Below the pieces are notes generated by a model. That model made no database searches. It was not told where the DNA came from and was given only the letters and a program-made list of their open reading frames with translations. DNA of 64,000 nucleotides from a virus (Duplodnaviria > Heunggongvirae > Uroviricota > Caudoviricetes), in IMG/VR virus record IMGVR_UViG_2724679293_000007, positions 1-64,000 of that record. One strand, 5' to 3'. Positions 2,854 through 59,483 of the stretch are shown here, piece after piece (position 1 is the first letter of the stretch; every line of letters starts with the position of its first letter). Made by a program: the position numbers and the translations under genes.

Positions 2854-3087
2854 ATGGGAAAAATAACTTTTGTAGTCGAATTTGAGGATGGTAAAGAGCC
2901 ACCTGTTAGCGCCAATCTTGATGTTGCTGGTGGCAGGCTTGTTTCGGTTCTATTTGGTGACTACCGAGATGATTTCTTCCAACCAGAAGAAGTTGATGTG
3001 GTGCGAGAGGCATTAAACGAGTTAAGTGTTGATAACGATGATGCTCATGCGGAAATCATCCAAAAAATGGAACTGCTAACTCACTAA
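2854..3087 (+). CDS. hypothetical acidic protein (77 aa)
   Basis: ORF 2836-3087 in track starts at TTG; in-frame ATG at 2854 with GGTGG RBS preferred. Confidence 0.45.
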   Translation: MGKITFVVEFEDGKEPPVSANLDVAGGRLVSVLFGDYRDDFFQPEEVDVVREALNELSVDNDDAHAEIIQKMELLTH

Positions 3088-18088: not shown

Positions 18089-18234
18089 CCGACTATTTGT
18101 TTAAAAACGGAGATCGTTGTTTACCATTTCTCCGTTTTCTATCAAGAGGGGCAACCTCTTTAAGAGAGTCAAAATTGTTTCTCCTTCATCGCTATCGCTG
18201 ATAACATCAGCTCAAAAAACGAAGGAGTTTTTCT

Positions 18235-18840
18235 ATGTCTGACACTTCGACAAACGAAATTGTACCACACCTACCATTAATCTTCGAAAATGAAGCTAAT
18301 GGGATTCTTCAGGATCTGGCCTGTACCCCATCGCTGATGGGGATGATGATGTTTGCGACAGAAGAGGAACTGAAAGCGGCACGAAGCCACATAATAGACG
18401 TATTTGAAGAGTGTTACCGAGCCGGACATTTACGCATTATGGGCTTTACTAATGAAGGACAGTTGTTCGGGTACGCCTTAATTTTTGGGCATCCATCAGG
18501 AAACTTACCATTGTACTGTCATAAAATTTATGTATATGAGCAATATCGTGGTAATGGACTTGGAAGTAAGATACTGGCAGAAATACTTGCATTTCCAAAT
18601 GAAGTCGGATTGATTTGCCAGTCTGCTTTAGTTCCTTTTTATGAATCAGCGGGGATGCACTTTAAAGGGAATTACACTACTCCACCAGTCGCTAATTTCA
18701 CAAAAACCCGAGGGATGTATGAGGGGCTTTGCGTGATGAGTACCAATAAGACGGACAAGATTAATGATATCCCCATCTTCATGTTAAATAATCGCGATAT
18801 TGATACCATTATACAAGCTATGGTATCGGCAAAAAAATAA
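18235..18840 (+). CDS. GNAT-family N-acetyltransferase (201 aa)
   Basis: Acetyl-CoA motif QYRGNGLGSKILAEIL; AAGGAG RBS; no partner gene; occupies the position where P1 carries res/mod. Confidence 0.7.
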   Translation: MSDTSTNEIVPHLPLIFENEANGILQDLACTPSLMGMMMFATEEELKAARSHIIDVFEECYRAGHLRIMGFTNEGQLFGYALIFGHPSGNLPLYCHKIYVYEQYRGNGLGSKILAEILAFPNEVGLICQSALVPFYESAGMHFKGNYTTPPVANFTKTRGMYEGLCVMSTNKTDKINDIPIFMLNNRDIDTIIQAMVSAKK

Positions 18841-18960
18841 CCCTACAGCTCCAAAATGCTGAAAAGATCACAAATGGTTTAATCTCCAAATGTTAAACAT
18901 GATTACTTCTGCATAAAACTTTTTCAGCCCGGTCGAGTGCCGGGCATAAACTCGGAAAGT

Positions 18961-30262: not shown

Positions 30263-30751
30263 GTGGCACAACGCGGTGTAAACAAAGTCATCCTGATTGG
30301 TACCCTGGGGCAAGACCCGGAGATCAGGTATATACCAAATGGCGGCGCGGTCGGAAGACTCAGCATCGCAACGAATGAATCATGGCGCGACAAGCAAACG
30401 GGCCAACAGAAAGAGCAAACAGAATGGCATAAAGTCGTCTTGTTCGGAAAACTTGCTGAAATTGCGAGTGAGTATTTACGAAAAGGTTCTCAGGTATACA
30501 TCGAAGGGAAACTTAAAACCCGTAAGTGGACAGATGACGCCGGTGTAGAACGTTACACGATGGAAATTATCGTCAGCCAGGGCGGCACCATGCAAATGAT
30601 CGGCGCTCGCCGTGACGATTCACAGTCCTCAAATGGCTGGGGGCAATCAAACCAACCTCAAAACCACCAGCAATACAGTGGTGGCGGTAAACCTCAGAGC
30701 AACGCCAATAACGAACCTCCAATGGACTTTGACGACGATATTCCGTTTTAG
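30263..30751 (+). CDS. ssb: single-stranded DNA-binding protein
   Basis: 162 aa, GTG start; [51 protein letters not shown].. and acidic tail DFDDDIPF closely resemble E. coli SSB. Confidence 0.95.
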
Positions 30752-30791
30752 GATTTACCTAAGACGTTTATGTAATTAATTATCTATCAGG

Positions 30792-30818
30792 CCCCTGTTA
30801 ATACAGGGGATTTTTATT
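30792..30818 (+). terminator. intrinsic terminator (CCCCTG-TTAATA-CAGGGG + T-run)
   Basis: Perfect hairpin then ATTTTTATTT after ssb stop. Confidence 0.6.
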
Positions 30819-30999
30819 TCTAGTAACTATAAGAGGTGTTAATTATTAATTGACAATCTTTAGTGTTTCGCGCACCTTGCAAGTATCCAATATTTACTGA
30901 TTGTGGATGCATAAAGAAGATCCACAGCGTTACAAATTTGTATTTCTTTCTTCAGCAATTAAGCAGGCGACTTGCTCTATCCTGCCCAAAGGAACACGT

Positions 31000-32355
31000 A
31001 TGACACACTGCAAAGAAAATACTTGGTATGAGCGTCAAGGGTACAATACAACCCGCCCGAATGAGATAAGGTCGGAGTATGAACGTGATCTTTCCCGGTT
31101 AATCCACTCTTCCGCTTTTAGGAGATTACAATCGAAGACGCAGGTGTTGGGATTGGGCGAAAGCGATTTCTACCGTACGCGGTTAACTCACTCTATGGAA
31201 GTAGCGCAAATTGGCGGCGGTATCTTGTCTCAGTTGTCTAAGCACGATACAGATGAGGGGGGTAAATTCTTACCTGACCCAAGCCTGATGCAGGCTATCT
31301 GCCTTGCTCATGATATAGGACATCCCCCCTTCGGTCATGGTGGTGAGGTCGCACTAAACTACTGCATGAGATCCTATGGCGGCTTTGAAGGTAACGGGCA
31401 GACACTGCGTATACTCTCCAAACTGGATAAGTACACCGAAACCAATGGGCTGGATCCCACCCGTAGACTTATTTTAGGCGTACTGAAATATCCAGCAAGC
31501 TATTCAGAGGTCGTCAATGAGAGGGCTTACAGCCAGTTACAGCCAAGAAGCAATGAGTGGTTGTTTAAATCATCCGAATTTAAGCCCCCGAAATGTTACC
31601 TGGACTCTGAGGAGAACACTGTTAGATTCGCACTCCAACCTTTTGATAGTGGTGATGTTAAGTTATTCAAAACGGTAAAAACTACCGCGTTGAATAAGCA
31701 CAAGAAAACAATATATAAAGCACTGGATACAACGATTATGGACTTGGCTGATGAGATATCCTACTCACTCCATGATCTTGAAGACGCAATTTCTCTGAAG
31801 ATGATCGACAAAAAAATGTGGGAGGAGCACTTCGAGGACAAGTCCCATTTATTTGCAGCTTGCCAATGCGACTCGTTTAATCTAAAAGCCGATGATGTAG
31901 CTGAAAAACTGTTCGGCGAAAGTTATCTACGCAAGGAGTGCATAGGGACACTTGTTCATCTGATGATCACTAGCGTTAAGCTTGAAGTGCAGAACTCTGA
32001 TTTCAAAAGTAAAATTTTACGCTATAAAGTGGCACTTCCTGCCGCGGTAGAAGAGTTACGTAAAGCCATTTTTGAGCTGGTTAAGAACAAAGTTATTCAG
32101 CACGAAAACGTCCAACTATTAGAGTTCAAAGGTCAGAAACTGATTGTGGAACTATTCAATGTACTGGCAAATGACCCAATACGTTTTCTCCCGACAGAAA
32201 CCCGAAAGAAATATAATCAAGAGGAAGCAAAAGGTGATGATAAAAAAATGCGCGTCATTTGCGACTATGTTTCAGGCATGACAGATGATTACGCTACTAG
32301 ACTGTATGAGAAAATATTTGTACCGAGAAAAGGCTCTATTTTTGATAGACTCTGA
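31000..32355 (+). CDS. dGTPase-family HD-domain dNTP triphosphohydrolase (Dgt-like)
   Basis: 451 aa from ATG 31000 (track ORF starts at 30901); motifs RLTHSMEVAQIG, HDIGHPPFGH, DLEDAI and C-terminal SGMTDDYA align to E. coli Dgt from memory. Confidence 0.8.
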   Translation: MTHCKENTWYERQGYNTTRPNEIRSEYERDLSRLIHSSAFRRLQSKTQVLGLGESDFYRTRLTHSMEVAQIGGGILSQLSKHDTDEGGKFLPDPSLMQAICLAHDIGHPPFGHGGEVALNYCMRSYGGFEGNGQTLRILSKLDKYTETNGLDPTRRLILGVLKYPASYSEVVNERAYSQLQPRSNEWLFKSSEFKPPKCYLDSEENTVRFALQPFDSGDVKLFKTVKTTALNKHKKTIYKALDTTIMDLADEISYSLHDLEDAISLKMIDKKMWEEHFEDKSHLFAACQCDSFNLKADDVAEKLFGESYLRKECIGTLVHLMITSVKLEVQNSDFKSKILRYKVALPAAVEELRKAIFELVKNKVIQHENVQLLEFKGQKLIVELFNVLANDPIRFLPTETRKKYNQEEAKGDDKKMRVICDYVSGMTDDYATRLYEKIFVPRKGSIFDRL

Positions 32356-32522
32356 TCTTTTTCTATTATATAGTACGTAGCCGGGTTCCAGAACCGCATA
32401 AAATTAGATCTGGATATAATTCATTTAATTATCTGTTATATGCCAAACATAACGGTATATAATAGTGGATTAGATGTTACAACTTGACGCAGAATAAATA
32501 GCTTTTATTGGCGCATGATGCA

Positions 32523-32546
32523 AACCCCGCAATGAAGCGGGGTTTT
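32523..32546. terminator. bidirectional hairpin terminator (CCCCGC-AATGAA-GCGGGG-TTTT)
   Basis: Between convergent dGTPase gene and the 122-aa gene. Confidence 0.6.
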
Positions 32547-32562
32547 AACTGTGGTAAATGAG

Positions 32563-32931
32563 TTATAATCTTTTAATCAGGCTCTCAATATTAGTTGGTT
32601 CAAAGTAATGCTTATTAACCTCTCCATTTATGAGGAAACCGTCTTTTAGTAGTCGGTCTAGCTCACGCTCTGCTTCTTTGTTGAACATACCTGGATATAT
32701 TCTCTTGTACAACTGAAATGTACCATTCATATTCCTGTAAGCATTCTCAGCAATTTCAATGGAGATTTCATTTCCGGCGTTAAATACAGGAATGAATATC
32801 TCAAGAATATCATTCTTTAACTTCTGTTTAAGTTTCTTTTTTTCAACAATATTAGAATAAAAGATACCTAAAAAAAATGTGCAGATACCAGGAAGCCAAT
32901 TATTAACGAAAACCTCAGACAAAGCGTCCAC
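32563..32931 (-). CDS. small protein with N-terminal transmembrane helix (122 aa), AT-rich
   Basis: ORF track; WLPGICTFFLGIFYSNIV hydrophobic segment; low GC relative to backbone. Confidence 0.5.
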   Translation of the reverse strand: MDALSEVFVNNWLPGICTFFLGIFYSNIVEKKKLKQKLKNDILEIFIPVFNAGNEISIEIAENAYRNMNGTFQLYKRIYPGMFNKEAERELDRLLKDGFLINGEVNKHYFEPTNIESLIKRL

Positions 32932-33137
32932 TATCTTACTCCAGAGTTAAGATTGATTCTCATAACGCACAAACTCCGTTCAAGGCGATTTTTATATTAC
33001 AAACTATACATAAACGCTGATCAATATCTCCAGATTTTGTGTGCCTGTGCATGAATATGCACTAATCATAATCGACCAGAACTTCCGTTAATCGCTAAAC
33101 TCGAACGATTCTAGCCACATAGACGATCTGTTAGTAT

Positions 33138-33446
33138 CTAATATACAAACTGATCCACATGATCACCCAAGTCATCGTCGTCGTCCTCATCGCCACCATC
33201 TACTGCTGGCCAATCAACAAACCAGCCAGCGTAAAGATGCAGCGTTCGGAGAACATCACTTGCGGGAGCATCAAGGGTGTTAACGAATCCCATATAGCTA
33301 TTGGGATTTGCCCCAGCTATGGCTTCAGCGATCATGTCCTCGGTAATGTCACCGGAGATAATGCTTAAACGCCCGGAAACTTCTTCGTTATCATCAAATT
33401 CGATAATGGCATCTCCACCTAATGGCGCTGCGATTTTAATCTGCAT
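33138..33446 (-). CDS. acidic protein (102 aa), last gene of dar operon
   Basis: ORF overlapping ddrB stop; run of D/E at C-terminus. Confidence 0.5.
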   Translation of the reverse strand: MQIKIAAPLGGDAIIEFDDNEEVSGRLSIISGDITEDMIAEAIAGANPNSYMGFVNTLDAPASDVLRTLHLYAGWFVDWPAVDGGDEDDDDDLGDHVDQFVY

Positions 33447-40118: not shown

Positions 40119-40543
40119 TAACTTCTCATCTGGTTGTTCATAATTTGCCAATACATTCGTAAATCAAGTGAAAAACCCATATTTTGGTTATTCTTAATAC
40201 AAAATGGCTATTCCAACTACATATCAAAAAAGCAACCACATCCAAAAATGAGTTTCCCCACTGAACTTCTGCAAGACAAAAACCAACAAAACCACCTTTT
40301 ATGGCAAGCAGCCATGCTTCAAGCCAATGTAAAAAACATGGCTTATAAGCTCCACGCCTAACTCCAGTAAGAAATAAATAGGTTCCACTAATAATGGACA
40401 TTAAAAAAATCAAAATCTGCATAAGCTCCTCCCGGATCTAACAAAAATCAAGCAGGAACCTATTCAGATTGTTATTTCTGTGCATAACGCTTTGTTCTTT
40501 AAAATTCGCAGACTCATAAGAACAACGCATTAGAGTAAAAATC

Positions 40544-41686: not shown

Positions 41687-42768
41687 AAGATATTGAACTT
41701 AACCCACGGTCTATAGGCACAATCAACTCCACAACAATGTCTTTTAGTGGTGGTGCAGGATGGTTCAAGCTGGCAACTGTAACCATGCCGCAGGCAAGTT
41801 CTGTTGTTTCAATTACGTTGATTGGTGGCGCGGGATTTAACGTGGGGTCACCTCAACAGGCAGGTATATCTGAACTTGTTTTGCGTGCAGGTAACGGTAA
41901 TCCGAAGGGGATTACTGGTGCTTTATGGCAGCGCACATCGGCAGGGTTTACAAATTTTGCGTGGGTCAATACTTCTGGTGACACTTACGATATTTACGTT
42001 GCTATTGGAAATTATGCGACTGGTGTAAATATTCAATGGGATTATACCAGTAATGCCAGCGTAACGATTCATACTTCACCAGCATATTCTGCTAATAAGC
42101 CGGAAGGATTAACGGACGGTTCTGTTTATTCGCTGTATATTTCGCCGCATGAACTTTATCCGGTTGGCGCACCGATCCCTTGGCCATCAGATACCGTTCC
42201 GTCTGGTTATGCCCTGATGCAGGGGCAGACTTTTGACAAATCTGCATACCCGAAACTTGCAGCCGCTTATCCGTCAGGTGCGATCCCTGATATGCGTAGC
42301 TGGACGATTAAGGGCAAGCCCGCCAGTGGTCGTGCAGTATTGTCTCAGGAACAGGACGGCATTAAATCGCACACCCACAGCGCCAGTGCATCCAGTACGG
42401 ATTTGGGGACGAAAACCACATCGTCGTTTGATTACGGTACTAAAACGACCAGTTCATTTGATTACGGCACAAAAACTACGAATAGCGCTGGAAATCATTC
42501 ACACAATATACCTGTTGGTCACACTGGCGCGGGGAATGGTGTATCAGCCGGTTATAACGCTGCGTTAGGTACTGGTACCACGTCGAGCGCAGGAGGGCAT
42601 GCTCACAATGTATATATCGGTGCCCATAACCACACTATCGGCATTGGTGCTCATGCCCATTCTGTCATTATTGGTCCCCACGGACACACCATCACCGTTA
42701 ACGCTACGGGTAACGAAGAAAACACCGTAAAAAACATCGCATTTAACTATATTGTGAGGCTTGCATAA
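41152..42768 (+). CDS. Sv', alternative tail-fibre C-terminal segment (silent in this orientation)
   Basis: No own start; first about 179 aa identical to the IR-encoded part of S, then unique C-terminus with [10 protein letters not shown] repeats and His-rich HxH motifs. Confidence 0.7.
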
Positions 42769-43346
42769 TGACATTCAGAATGAGTGAACAATCACGGACC
42801 ATAAAAATTTATAATCTACTGGCTGGAACCAATGAGTTTATTGGTGAAGGTGATGCATACATTCCACCTCATACAGGTCTGCCTGCAAACAGTACCGATA
42901 TTGCCCCGCCAGATATTCCGGCTGGCTTCGTGGCCGTTTTCAACAGTGATGAGGCATCGTGGAATCTCGTTGAAGACCATCGGGGAAAAACCGTCTATGA
43001 CGTGGCTTCCGGCGACGCGTTATTTATTTCTGAACTTGGCCCATTACCGGAAAATGTCACCTGGTTATCCCCGGAAGGGGAGTTTCAGAAGTGGAACGGC
43101 ACAGCCTGGGTGAAAGATGCAGAAGCAGAAAAACTGTTCCGGATCCGGAAGGCGGAAGAAACAAAAAACAGCCTGATGCAGATGGCCAGTGAGCATATTG
43201 CGCCACTTCAGGATGCCGTAGATTTGGATATTGCGACGGAGGAAGAGGCATCGTTACTGACTGCATGGAAGACATATCGGGTATTGTTGAATCGTGTTGA
43301 TACAGCAGTAGCAGCGGATGTTGAGTGGCCAGTCGCCCCGCAATAA
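42768..43346 (+). CDS. U', alternative tail-fibre assembly chaperone
   Basis: 192 aa, Tfa-like C-terminus ([12 protein letters not shown]); start overlaps Sv' stop. Confidence 0.7.
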
Positions 43347-43353
43347 AAAGATA

Positions 43354-43381
43354 AAGCCATCGATAGAAATATTGATGGCTT
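43354..43381. terminator. hairpin terminator (AAGCCATC-12nt-GATGGCTT)
   Basis: 8-bp stem between convergent U' and the acetyltransferase gene; U-rich on minus side. Confidence 0.45.
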
Positions 43382-43389
43382 TATGTACT

Positions 43390-56676: not shown

Positions 56677-56805
56677 TTACCCGATTCTACGAGTTGTCAT
56701 TTGTTACCGGTCAGTCTACACATTTCAGATGCTGCGTTAAAAAACCCAAGTACTTCAAGTAGCACATCGTCATCAACACCCAGCCCCAAGATACGGTGAT
56801 AAAAT

Positions 56806-57873
56806 TCAAGCCTTAAGAGGCTTTGTGTATGTTCGTGTAATCCATCCAGTAATAAACTCGTCCCCTGATTTAACCTGCACGAAAAGCCATTGGCGATCTT
56901 TTTTATCTAAAACAGCCACTATAGTATTTTTGCCAATGCATTCAATCACCTCACTATTTATAGAAGGACTGACGTGTAATCTTACGTTCTCACCAGTTAT
57001 AAAACGAAAACCATTGAGATCTTCCCAACTAATTTCTTTGTTTTCTTTAATTAATTGTTGTTTTGATATTGGTTTATCCTCAAACAGAGATATAAAATAT
57101 GATTCTGCCTTGTGTATTCCCAGCAAGGTTTTCTCTTTTCCGTAATCAATAAAAGCACCAAACACAACTTGAGAAAATATAACCATTAGTAACCATTGCA
57201 GTGGATAAGGAAGCTCTTTAAATGAATCAACAAACTTTGAGCTAGGTTTATTTAATCCTTTATTTTGAACATTACTTTTGGTGTGTGATGTTTCAGTAGC
57301 ACCTTCAGCATAAGCCTGCGCAATAGATGAAATCCCCTGCTCTATTATTTGATGTAATGAAGCATTTCTTGTTCTAGCATAGTGATCTAGTACTTTCTTT
57401 ATGTCTTGGCTTACATCTGTTTTATAACTTGCACTTTGTTGTAATTCTTTAAGTATCGCTTGCATGTTATTTAAACCAGCTTGCTTATTAAGCACCTCAA
57501 GCTGTTTTCGTAATGGCATAGCTATTTCGGCCTGTTTCCTTAGCATTTGAATATATCTATTTGCGTCATGAGGGAAAAGAGCCTGAGTCTGTTTCTGTAA
57601 AATCGCGATATGTTCACGATACTTGCTGCCTATTCCAGCCAAGTTCGGCATACTAGCCAATTGTTTTCGAAGAGAGTTACTAATTACAGCTTGTCTATTC
57701 AATCTTGTCATATTTTGAAAAGAATGTTTTTCTATTCCTAATTGTTTTTGCAAGATCGCTACGTGATCTTTGTATGATGGAATGAGCACTGACTGTTTAT
57801 ACAGTAACTTCAACTCATTAGAATTAGTAATTTTTGTCATATTATTCCATTTATATAATAGAATATTACGCAA
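56806..57873 (-). CDS. membrane-anchored protein with internal repeats and C-terminal SH3b-like domain (355 aa), AT-rich
   Basis: Repeated HxAILQKQ / LRKQL segments, one TM helix (LQWLLMVIFSQVVFGAFIDY), C-terminal pattern like bacterial SH3 (GFRFITGENVRLHVSPS..WLFVQVKSGDEFITGWITRTY). Confidence 0.55.
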   Translation of the reverse strand: MRNILLYKWNNMTKITNSNELKLLYKQSVLIPSYKDHVAILQKQLGIEKHSFQNMTRLNRQAVISNSLRKQLASMPNLAGIGSKYREHIAILQKQTQALFPHDANRYIQMLRKQAEIAMPLRKQLEVLNKQAGLNNMQAILKELQQSASYKTDVSQDIKKVLDHYARTRNASLHQIIEQGISSIAQAYAEGATETSHTKSNVQNKGLNKPSSKFVDSFKELPYPLQWLLMVIFSQVVFGAFIDYGKEKTLLGIHKAESYFISLFEDKPISKQQLIKENKEISWEDLNGFRFITGENVRLHVSPSINSEVIECIGKNTIVAVLDKKDRQWLFVQVKSGDEFITGWITRTYTKPLKA

Positions 57874-57914
57874 CCAATGTTTTATTGATTGCGTTAATCT
57901 TTAACACAGAAAGA

Positions 57915-58391
57915 TCATTTGCCTCGTTTAATACATCCATCCATTTTGGCTTGTTGATACAACTTACTTAGCCCAGAAAGAGGGAATGTAGCAATTTTTT
58001 CATTATCAACATAAGCATCAATCATATTAGCATTTGAATCTGCTGCATCTTGCCAAAAGGCATACCACCAAGAATCTCCAACCATTGATCCAAGATTGCT
58101 AAAAGGATATTGCTCACCATCTATAGTTAATACTATTTTATTCTTGTCAGCATTATACTCTTTTTTATTATTCGACGAACTTAGCAACAAGCCTAAACTA
58201 CCTGCACTATCTGGTGAACCATACATGAATCCCATATCACATAAAAAACTTATCTTATCACCATTATGATTATGGATTGTATATTCTCTCCCCCCTCTCT
58301 CTTCAATTACATTCCATTGTAGAGGATCAATTTTTGCAAATGTTCCTGCTGAAACTAACGATACAAATAATAAAAACCATCTCATATTCAT
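57915..58391 (-). CDS. secreted/periplasmic protein with signal peptide (158 aa), AT-rich
   Basis: N-terminus MNMRWFLLFVSLVSAGTFA then charged mature region; two Cys. Confidence 0.55.
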   Translation of the reverse strand: MNMRWFLLFVSLVSAGTFAKIDPLQWNVIEERGGREYTIHNHNGDKISFLCDMGFMYGSPDSAGSLGLLLSSSNNKKEYNADKNKIVLTIDGEQYPFSNLGSMVGDSWWYAFWQDAADSNANMIDAYVDNEKIATFPLSGLSKLYQQAKMDGCIKRGK

Positions 58392-58413
58392 TCTTTTCGC
58401 TTCTTATCTGTAA

Positions 58414-58764
58414 TTATTCTGCAATATCATTTGCCCATTGCACGGCAGCAAAATGAGTACCCAAACCACTCAGGAAAGCAATTACCCCCAAAACAATACT
58501 TGCTGCTGTTGATTCAAACAAAGTACCAATACTATAGCCAATAGCTCCCCATACTAAGCTAAATACAATCATCAATGGTATTGCCAGAAATTTTATTCTT
58601 AAACTAAAAATCAGTCCAAGAAAAGAACCGCCAAAGGCCCACCATGATTTAGACATTAAACCTATCAGTATTGACAGAATTCCTATTTCAATAAAGAGAA
58701 TATTAGATTGCTCTTCATTGAATTTCGCATTTGTTACACCTTTACGAACATGTTCAGATGACAT
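58414..58764 (-). CDS. integral membrane protein (116 aa, about 3 TM helices), AT-rich
   Basis: Three hydrophobic segments; first gene of the three-gene minus-strand operon. Confidence 0.5.
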   Translation of the reverse strand: MSSEHVRKGVTNAKFNEEQSNILFIEIGILSILIGLMSKSWWAFGGSFLGLIFSLRIKFLAIPLMIVFSLVWGAIGYSIGTLFESTAASIVLGVIAFLSGLGTHFAAVQWANDIAE

Positions 58765-58910
58765 GATTAACTATCTCCTGCCACAGATAAAACGCCTTAA
58801 AATAACATTTTGTAGCATAAAGTTTCACCATGCAATGGTCAAAATCTTTGACCCATATCAATTAAACTCATACATTTTAGTTACCAGGGAAATAATTTAC
58901 ATGGTTGCAA

Positions 58911-58927
58911 GTTGCTCTAATTATTTT
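58911..58927 (+). promoter_or_regulatory. C1 operator (GTTGCTCTAATTATTTT), Op51-like
   Basis: 13/17 match; between divergent cargo operon and c4-icd-ant. Confidence 0.6.
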
Positions 58928-59125
58928 ATTTTTTTAGCTTCATATGCTACATTAACTTGCTTGCGTGCTAATGCATTTTCGGTTTATCCTAAACAGGCAT
59001 CTTAGTAAAACGGATGCCGGGATTGGAACCCCGGATAATGCAAAAGGCGACACAGACGCCAAAAGCGTCTTTTTTTGTGTCATGCCATCGCACAGCCATA
59101 CGTAGCACATAGCTCCGAGATCAAT

Positions 59126-59205
59126 GGTAGTGCTGGCTGGGCTGCCGAAAGGCAGGCCGGTTCCCTTTTGCGCCGGTAGTTCCAACCCAGTCAGTGCTAC
59201 CGCCA
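59126..59205 (+). ncRNA. c4: c4 antisense repressor RNA (immI), tRNA-like precursor
   Basis: About 77-80 nt; long terminal stem (59126-59141 pairs with 59186-59201) ending GCCA, internal GNRA hairpin CTGCC-GAAA-GGCAG, exposed GGUUCC elements complementary to GGAACC targets at 59021-59030 and 59211-59219. Confidence 0.55.
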
Positions 59206-59261
59206 TTGAGATTGGAACCTCACGCGGTAGCTCCTTAAATTAGCAAAAGGAGGCTGCCATT

Positions 59262-59483
59262 GTGGCTACTATCCCTACCCCTACTCATCCTGAATTTATC
59301 TGGCGCTTTTACTCCTGCCAAAAACACCACTATCACTTCGTTATCGCAGCAACAGAAGACGAAGCACGCTCTCAATTGCCTGATGGCCCCTGCATTTTTA
59401 CTGCCCGTTTTTCAACTAACTCGCGCAATTCACTTAGTTACTGGAACCTCCCCTTCTCTGCCGACGTTCAGGGGGGTTTATGA
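59262..59483 (+). CDS. icd: Icd (interference with cell division), 73 aa
   Basis: GTG start with AAGGAGG RBS; 73 codons overlapping ant start (ATGA), as recalled for P1. Confidence 0.55.
   Translation: MATIPTPTHPEFIWRFYSCQKHHYHFVIAATEDEARSQLPDGPCIFTARFSTNSRNSLSYWNLPFSADVQGGL

Follow-up and report, generated by a model that had tools for sequence, protein, structure and literature searches.

An anti-phage dGTPase family member and a small orphan gene as probable accessory cargo of a P1-like phage-plasmid

The segment between ssb and hxr of a P1-like phage-plasmid, represented here by positions 30752-33137 of a 64,000-nucleotide (nt) stretch of the Caudoviricetes record IMGVR_UViG_2724679293_000007 (hereafter "the window", in whose positions all coordinates are given), carries two convergent genes: one for an HD-domain protein of 451 amino acids (aa) with the features of a deoxyguanosine triphosphate (dGTP) triphosphohydrolase, or dGTPase, and one for a small protein, the product of open reading frame (ORF) 122. 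By sequence, the 451-aa protein is a member of the described anti-phage dGTPase family, within the clade of the Shewanella putrefaciens (Sp-dGTPase) and Escherichia coli G177 (Ec-G177) enzymes. We consider it probable that the whole segment is accessory cargo made up of two independent single-gene modules, and that the dGTPase module is defensive and derived from a bacterial chromosome.

The dGTPase and the slot that it occupies

Homology of the window to phage P1 ends at 30749, 2 bases before the end of ssb, and restarts at 33139, a single base beyond the stop codon of hxr. These limits agree with the boundaries 30752-33137 drawn by an initial annotation of the window, and every feature that it had described within them was found where it had been placed. 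The same annotation had located the segment at the IS1 site of P1, between ssb and the end of the dar operon, which is borne out by the order of genes in P1 (ssb-isaA-IS1-isaB-hxr-ddrB), where isaA-IS1-isaB takes up this position. Among P1-like plasmids, defined here as the 514 PLSDB plasmids matching the flanks of the ssb-hxr slot, the interval is polymorphic and is bounded by the ssb and hxr stop codons. The slot is shared by the dGTPase cassette, the isaA-IS1-isaB arrangement of P1, isaA-type variants (whose annotations read DUF2829 or hypothetical protein), the OmpC/NmpC porin type (nmpC/ompC) of P7 and its relatives, and larger inserts. Whereas the isaA-type variants carry P1's own 200 nt after ssb, chromosome-type ssb-downstream DNA is found, among the slot cargo types compared, only in the dGTPase cassette.

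The dGTPase ORF runs from an ATG at 31000 to a stop codon ending at 32355, with the same start and stop as in RefSeq. The four motifs by which the initial annotation had recognised a dGTP triphosphohydrolase (RLTHSMEVAQIG, HDIGHPPFGH, DLEDAI and SGMTDDYA) are all present. Pfam detects an HD domain followed by the C-terminal HD-associated domain, HD_assoc, and the superfamily model TIGR01353 scores 370 bits. The protein passes both NCBIfam models of the anti-phage family, namely NF041026, "anti-phage deoxyguanosine triphosphatase" (572.2 bits, cut-off 400), and NF003701 (563.4 bits, cut-off 383), as well as the PADLOC dGTPase model PDLC02374 (1.8e-148). It fails the equivalog model for housekeeping E. 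coli Dgt, NF003429, reaching 141.8 bits in three short stretches against a cut-off of 405. The proposal that this is a defensive dGTPase and not a housekeeping Dgt is therefore upheld by these models, and neither clustering with Dgt nor mutation of the HD catalytic residues, either of which the initial annotation would have counted against itself, was found.

The best match among solved structures is PDB 9P8W (530 bits), the dGTPase of S. putrefaciens CN-32 and the prototype of the anti-phage family. Identity to this enzyme is 59% over 433 residues (19-451 of 451 against 14-462 of 462), which lies inside the defence-associated clade as delimited by Tal et al. 2022 (identity to Sp-dGTPase of 45% or more, across 90% or more of the length). 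In alignments with 9P8W the set of metal-binding and catalytic residues is complete (H64, H104, D105, H113, E116 and D259), D105 aligning with D101 of Sp-dGTPase. Expression of Sp-dGTPase drained dGTP, raised deoxyguanosine and blocked T7, and the substitution D101A abolished defence; at the 45% identity threshold, 53% of homologues adjoin defence genes (Tal et al. 2022). The two enzymes are alike in domain content (HD plus HD_assoc), length (about 450-460 aa), catalytic motifs and occurrence as stand-alone single genes; they differ in host and setting, and the window protein has short indels at residues 82-90, around residue 230 and near the C-terminus.

A still closer relative is encoded in a chromosomal island of E. 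coli ABWA45, with 80% identity at the protein level and 79% at the nucleotide level, the nucleotide match taking in some 58 nt 5' of the start codon. The ABWA45 enzyme matches the dGTPase of E. coli G177 at 131 of the 133 residues available (98%), and the window protein is 83% identical to the same 133-aa fragment. The G177 enzyme protected E. coli from phages (Tal et al. 2022). Between the window gene and its chromosomal homologue, the ratio of nonsynonymous to synonymous substitution rates (dN/dS) is 0.12, and the gene is under purifying selection. Its setting is the variable cargo slot of a phage-plasmid, and that of its closest non-plasmid relative is the yjcB-ssb defence island described below. 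A literature search by protein accessions and PHROG identifiers found no paper.

Two other groups of HD-domain dGTPases were compared. E. coli Dgt (PDB 4X9E) shares the dGTP triphosphohydrolase chemistry and the superfamily TIGR01353, and differs in that it aligns at 87.6 bits over query residues 13-124 only; Dgt and Sp-dGTPase are themselves 24% identical (Tal et al. 2022). Set against Dgt and the defensive dGTPases together, a comparison which the initial annotation had proposed, the protein thus aligns with Sp-dGTPase at 59% identity and with Dgt at its N-terminal part only. Clover resembles the present case in that its effector, CloA, is a dGTP-depleting HD protein used in phage defence. 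However, CloA is distant (82-89 bits, N-terminal only) and Clover requires an adjacent nucleotidyltransferase, CloB, which makes the inhibitor p3diT; none is encoded in the cassette. Membership in Clover was rejected, the sole neighbour in the cassette, ORF122, having no Pfam, NCBIfam or PADLOC domain.

By analogy with its characterised relatives, the enzyme would hydrolyse dGTP to deoxyguanosine and triphosphate, the dGTP pool would fall, and replication of the DNA of superinfecting lytic phages would be blocked, so that the lysogen, and with it the resident plasmid-prophage, would be protected. The dGTPase module would do so without a partner gene; Sp-dGTPase by itself hydrolyses dGTP in vitro.

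One could ask whether the gene instead serves the physiology of the plasmid-prophage, for example by tuning deoxynucleoside triphosphate pools, avoiding mutation as host Dgt does, controlling copy number or lysogeny, or imposing post-segregational stress. Housekeeping dGTPases do exist and affect genome integrity, as discussed by Tal et al., and the gene adjoins a replication gene, ssb. Yet the protein falls far short on the Dgt model (142 bits against 405) while passing the anti-phage models, its nearest relatives reside in defence islands and have been shown to restrict phages, and only about 10% of P1-like plasmids have the gene, which is therefore dispensable for P1 biology. A physiological role is thus very improbable, and we retain the defensive one.

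Spread of the cassette and its chromosomal junction

Copies of this cassette with at least 99% identity were found in 52 of the 514 P1-like plasmids of PLSDB and, among 5426 complete E. coli genomes, in 64. In the latter it always lies on replicons of about 80-190 kb, mostly of about 95 kb and of IncY type. Its hosts also include E. albertii, E. fergusonii and Cronobacter, from many sources and countries, and one deposited Punavirus phage carries it (vB_EcoM-673R5, ON470615.2). RefSeq uses the name "anti-phage deoxyguanosine triphosphatase" for the gene in dozens of P1-like plasmids, and dGTPase is listed with the commonest defences of P1-like elements of E. coli in a phage-plasmid survey of 2025 (bioRxiv 10.1101/2025.09.12.675607). 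Because of this annotation and this survey, the presence of a dGTPase on P1-like elements is already known, and the novelty implied by the initial annotation is overstated.

The dGTPase ORF is intact in the cassette-bearing plasmids that were checked. In vB_EcoM-673R5 (locus L026, positions 1301-2654) it is annotated as two coding sequences, the split being caused by two 1-nt deletions in runs of six G and six C (window 31252-31257 and 31319-31324). We considered whether this split marks inactivation or counter-selection of the gene and rejected it: deletions in such homopolymers are probably errors of long-read sequencing.

This bears on the possibility that the cassette is a recent and functionally silent passenger, the remnant of a decayed island without expression in the P1 context. 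Such a passenger could be expected from a left flank that consists of a truncated integrase-upstream remnant, from an upstream region in which no consensus promoter was detected, from the split in the one phage record and from copies so nearly clonal that there has been little time for decay. Against it, the ORF is intact wherever plasmids were checked and the cassette is spread over many hosts, sources and countries; about 58 nt of the native upstream block have been kept; and the split in the phage record, in its G6 and C6 runs, is typical of sequencing error. We therefore regard a silent passenger as very unlikely and continue with a functional defence module.

The left end of the cassette is chimeric. 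Between the 68 nt that come after the window's ssb stop codon and the 68 nt directly behind the stop codon of the chromosomal ssb1 of E. coli MIN9, identity is 98.5%, and the switch from P1-type to chromosome-type bases occurs exactly at the ssb stop codon, within the conserved ...GATATTCCGTT... tail. Over positions 30788-30941, identity is 73-74% to a chromosomal stretch of E. coli KMi029 and ABWA45 that takes in the ssb-integrase intergenic region and about 30 nt of the integrase gene itself; the remnant reaches, at 30941, to about the start codon of the integrase of ssb-linked islands. In ABWA45 the island continues for about 17 kb beyond the integrase start and ends with the 80%-identical dGTPase, abrB/mazE and yjcB. 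An 18-kb "yjcB-ssb defense island" with Detocs, dGTPase and mazE has been described as integration hotspot 39 (PMC11728103).

Over the first 36 nt behind ssb (30752-30787 in the window; 2965-3000 of locus L004), cassette-bearing plasmids carry one of two alleles. The window and pUTME-12-1 have an allele like that of MIN9, and pTetA_020022 and most other cassette-bearing plasmids have one like that of KMi029. Since each matches another chromosomal allele, they suggest repeated exchange with the chromosome.

Together, the base switch, the 98.5%-identical flank, the integrase-upstream remnant and the two alleles suggest that the cassette is a collapsed yjcB-ssb defence island captured through the 3' end of ssb. 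A crossover at this conserved end would have joined the chromosomal island to a P1-like plasmid, and about 17 kb would have been lost from inside the island, between its first integrase and the upstream region of the dGTPase gene, before or after this crossover. The cassette and the hotspot-39 island are alike in that the dGTPase gene lies 3' of an ssb gene and that the cassette keeps the chromosomal ssb flank and the integrase-upstream remnant. They differ in that the dGTPase gene of the island lies at the far end of about 18-19 kb containing three integrases, Detocs-like genes and mazE/abrB, whereas in the plasmid the interval from integrase start to dGTPase is gone and the ORF122 module follows in place of abrB-yjcB. 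This detail of the origin, the ssb-anchored left junction, is new in the present analysis.

Between the Detocs-like genes and the dGTPase gene of the ABWA45 island (locus L024, 4082-8258) we also observed genes for a DNA adenine methylase, an 8-oxoguanine DNA glycosylase, a dehydrogenase, a 7-cyano-7-deazaguanine synthase-like protein and a PfkB kinase, and a small ORF. This cluster looks like a DNA-modification or defence module.

ORF122

The initial annotation had noted a convergent, AT-rich gene for 122 aa, and this gene is present on the minus strand at 32563-32931, with a GTG start codon seven bases after a GGAG and a G+C content of 33% against 47% for the window. It had further assigned an N-terminal transmembrane helix. 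The N-terminus is indeed hydrophobic and such a helix is plausible, but the assignment is borderline: the Kyte-Doolittle maximum over 19 residues is 1.39 (residues 7-25) and is followed by the lysine-rich stretch EKKKLKQKLK. ORF122 may be membrane-anchored.

That the protein has no obvious family was likewise confirmed. Pfam, NCBIfam and PADLOC gave no match, and the only family hit is PHROG 26730, of unknown function (2.3e-77, residues 2-122 on a profile of 122 positions). A profile search of 1.84 billion representatives returned a tiny family of 14 close clusters at 50% identity and no remote family beyond them. AlphaFold2 predicts an all-helical protein (predicted local distance difference test score, pLDDT, 75) with one continuous helix over residues 2-55 (pLDDT 56-80). 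Foldseek searches with this model against PDB and BFVD returned nothing at E <= 0.001, the best viral matches being weak (E 0.25-0.8) and including an unnamed protein and a "holin". In Salmonella, Enterobacter, Yersinia, Vibrio, Marinomonas and Rheinheimera, ORF122 has homologues with identities of 55-99%, those of 122-133 aa standing at 55-85%, and they share an invariant core, ILEIFIPVFN, within KLKNDILEIFIPVFNxG. With a dN/dS of 0.08-0.10, ORF122 is a real, conserved gene.

Is ORF122 a partner of the dGTPase? The two genes always occur together in P1-like plasmids, 52 records carrying ORF122 and 53 the dGTPase gene in what is essentially one set, and a dGTPase restrained by a partner has a precedent in CloA/CloB of Clover, so that ORF122 could be imagined as a membrane sensor, regulator or antidote within one two-gene system, for instance holding the dGTPase inactive in the lysogen or while P1 itself grows lytically. 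However, the pairing is accounted for by the spread of a single, nearly clonal cassette (at least 99% identity). The genes are convergent, have their own flanks and fall into separate DNA homology blocks (30942-32359 for the dGTPase gene, 32456-32986 for ORF122 including the hairpin discussed below). At the chromosomal locus of the 80%-identical enzyme there is no ORF122 beside the dGTPase gene. Conversely, in eight other, independent contexts (a Salmonella integrative element, a Yersinia Mu-like prophage, Marinomonas, an Enterobacter plasmid, a metagenomic island, Rheinheimera, Vibrio and an E. coli chromosomal island) ORF122 homologues lie by themselves in variable regions, never beside a dGTPase or other HD-protein gene. 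Sp-dGTPase and Ec-G177 dGTPase function alone, and ORF122 has neither a nucleotidyltransferase nor any other enzymatic domain. On the strength of the eight dGTPase-free neighbourhoods and the separate homology blocks, ORF122 was dismissed as a partner, and a two-gene system has in our estimate hardly any probability. ORF122 and the dGTPase gene are independent modules that landed in the same slot.

What ORF122 might do is suggested faintly by its neighbours. Its homologues are often found near restriction-modification genes (type III, type IIG) and near genes for Mrr, HEPN and ABC-ATPase proteins, and a separate role in lysogenic conversion, for example superinfection exclusion or a membrane function of defence type, would be the likeliest one, if only tentatively. 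A doubtful but conceivable reading is that ORF122 represents an undescribed stand-alone gene for phage exclusion or counter-defence, a single-gene module moving between the defence islands of gammaproteobacterial mobile elements. In a less likely version of this reading, ORF122 would spare the resident phage from its own dGTPase.

Genes of another kind were also seen around the family. In the Yersinia Mu-like prophage (loci L009-L012, 1-8399) the homologues lie just 3' of a gene for a giant MuF/LPD polyvalent head-packaged protein; in Salmonella (L008, 4868-8384) the homologue lies near genes for an ArdA-type anti-restriction protein, DUF1281 and a methylase; and in P1-like plasmids ORF122 adjoins the dar/ddr anti-restriction operon. 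These anti-restriction neighbours may be coincidence, or may hint at a role in counter-defence rather than defence.

Several points weigh against the reading of the segment as two independent modules with a defensive, chromosome-derived dGTPase. Firstly, the activity, specificity and phage range of the enzyme are inferred from relatives that are 59-80% identical, and the relatives tested were over-expressed from pBAD (Tal et al. 2022). Secondly, lytic replication of a P1-like phage despite its own active dGTPase is a puzzle, which matters because Sp-dGTPase is active alone in vitro: a 95-kb phage genome has to be replicated in the face of a dGTP-hydrolysing enzyme that is constitutive in vitro in the case of this relative, which raises a clear question of self-protection. 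Thirdly, the copies of the cassette are nearly clonal, so that the intactness of the ORF says little about selection within P1. Fourthly, a scan for sigma-70 consensus promoters 5' of the dGTPase gene gave no match at the scan threshold. Fifthly, the capture model is one-sided because no chromosomal counterpart was found for the right junction (32360-32455 and the hxr side). Finally, the role of ORF122 is assigned by guilt by association from eight neighbourhoods.

Layout of the segment and other variable regions

The features of the segment and its two anchors are collected in Table 1.

Table 1. Features of the ssb-hxr slot in the window.
Feature	Position	Strand	Basis
P1-type ssb, left anchor of the slot	30263-30751	+	Pfam SSB 2.6e-39; 98.7% identity to P1 ssb up to 30749
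ssb 3' flank of chromosomal type, with the terminator hairpin of ssb (30792-30809)	30752-30819	+	98.5% identity to E. coli MIN9
What is left of the first integrase gene of ssb-linked islands (its upstream region and start); holds the TGTGGAT repeat	30820-30941	+	Homology to KMi029 and ABWA45
Block conserved 5' of the dGTPase gene, probably with its native promoter, leader and ribosome-binding site	30942-30999	+	Homology to the chromosomal locus begins at 30942
Anti-phage dGTPase (dGTP triphosphohydrolase), 451 aa	31000-32355	+	NF041026, PADLOC, Pfam
AT-rich spacer between the gene modules	32356-32455	.	No homology outside cassette-bearing P1-like plasmids
3' flank of the ORF122 module including the hairpin 32523-32546	32456-32562	-	79% identity to the flank of the homologue in metagenome locus L017
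ORF122, small orphan protein with hydrophobic N-terminus	32563-32931	-	PHROG 26730, function unknown
Upstream region of ORF122, patchy conservation with homologous loci	32932-33137	-	Alignment to Salmonella and metagenome loci
hxr, which closes the dar/ddr operon and anchors the slot on the right	33138-33446	-	P1 homology from 33139; PHROG 2292

Two regulatory features had been proposed in the initial annotation. The first, an inverted repeat TGTGGAT-N11-ATCCACA at 30902-30926, exists exactly as described; its interpretation as the binding site of a regulator finds no support. The repeat is no more than chance would give: dinucleotide shuffling of the 248-nt upstream region produced at least one inverted repeat with perfect 7-nt arms in 25% of cases, and the cassette as a whole has 6 of them against 3.5 +/- 2.5 in shuffles. 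The repeat lies 5' of 30942, in the integrase-upstream remnant and outside the block conserved with the chromosomal dGTPase gene, and the homologous chromosomal sequences at 30902-30926 are not inverted repeats. It was therefore rejected as an operator. It is also unlike the P1 C1 operator, which we take to be asymmetric.

The second was a bidirectional terminator between the two genes. The hairpin is there (AAACCCCGC-N6-GCGGGGTTT at 32523-32546, 16 nt after the ORF122 stop codon and 167 nt after that of the dGTPase gene), and both strands form it stably (-15.9 kcal/mol on the plus and -17.0 kcal/mol on the minus strand; z -3.1 and -4.1). Against termination, the stem is followed by short T-runs, 4 T on the plus and 3 T on the minus strand, and the hairpin was not called in the terminator scan. 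It is conserved with ORF122 homologues and hence belongs to the ORF122 module by homology. Behind ssb, the terminator at 30792-30809 (CCCCTGT-N4-ACAGGGG followed by a T-run; -12.9 kcal/mol, z -3.8) probably prevents the dGTPase gene from being read through from the ssb promoter, which by comparison with P1 is controlled by C1.

Some further signals were observed. A promoter-like site on the plus strand (TTGATA-16-TATTAT, 32342-32369, 10/12 matches) lies across the 3' end of the dGTPase gene and is directed towards the hairpin, and the 177 nt at 32376-32552 fold unusually well (-51.6 kcal/mol, z -4.4). The stretch 32342-32552 could encode a short non-coding transcript, antisense to nothing, or could be only AT-rich junction DNA; an Rfam scan of 30600-33300 gave only sub-threshold chance matches. 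The upstream region of ORF122 has a promoter-like site on the minus strand at 33032-33003 and a palindrome, GTGCATgaatATGCAC (GTGCAT-gaat-ATGCAC), at 33047-33062, about 115-130 nt 5' of the ORF122 start codon. Around the palindrome, alignment with the DNA upstream of the Salmonella and metagenome homologues is patchy, and the palindrome may be an operator of the ORF122 module.

Elsewhere the element departs from P1 in other variable regions. The res/mod genes of the EcoPI type III system and IS5 (P1 3473-9733) are replaced by about 850 bp (18094-18944) with an ORF on the plus strand (18235-18840) for a GNAT acetyltransferase of 201 aa, so that the element lacks P1's own restriction system; the dGTPase gene is the only recognised defence gene seen in the window. 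At 56706-59288, unrelated DNA stands in place of the superimmunity region simC/simB/simA-c4 (P1 46630-48496), with ORFs of 355 aa (weak SH3_3 match), 158 aa and 116 aa that belong to no Pfam or PADLOC family. Two further stretches have no match in P1, namely 41704-44423, in the variable C-segment of the tail fibre, and 40129-40537, near lydC/cin.

With respect to the biology of P1-like elements, the dGTPase cassette is one more case of temperate elements carrying immunity by nucleotide depletion, and ORF122, should it indeed be an exclusion gene, would add a second, membrane-level barrier beside the dGTPase. The points that might merit follow-up are only two, the ORF122 family and the ssb-anchored route of capture. 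For the latter, the junctions provide a concrete path by which chromosomal defence cargo may enter a phage-plasmid, the plasmid ssb acting as the homology anchor to the ssb-yjcB hotspot. Should this route prove general, the points at which defence genes enter phage-plasmids could be predictable, namely at conserved genes of housekeeping type.

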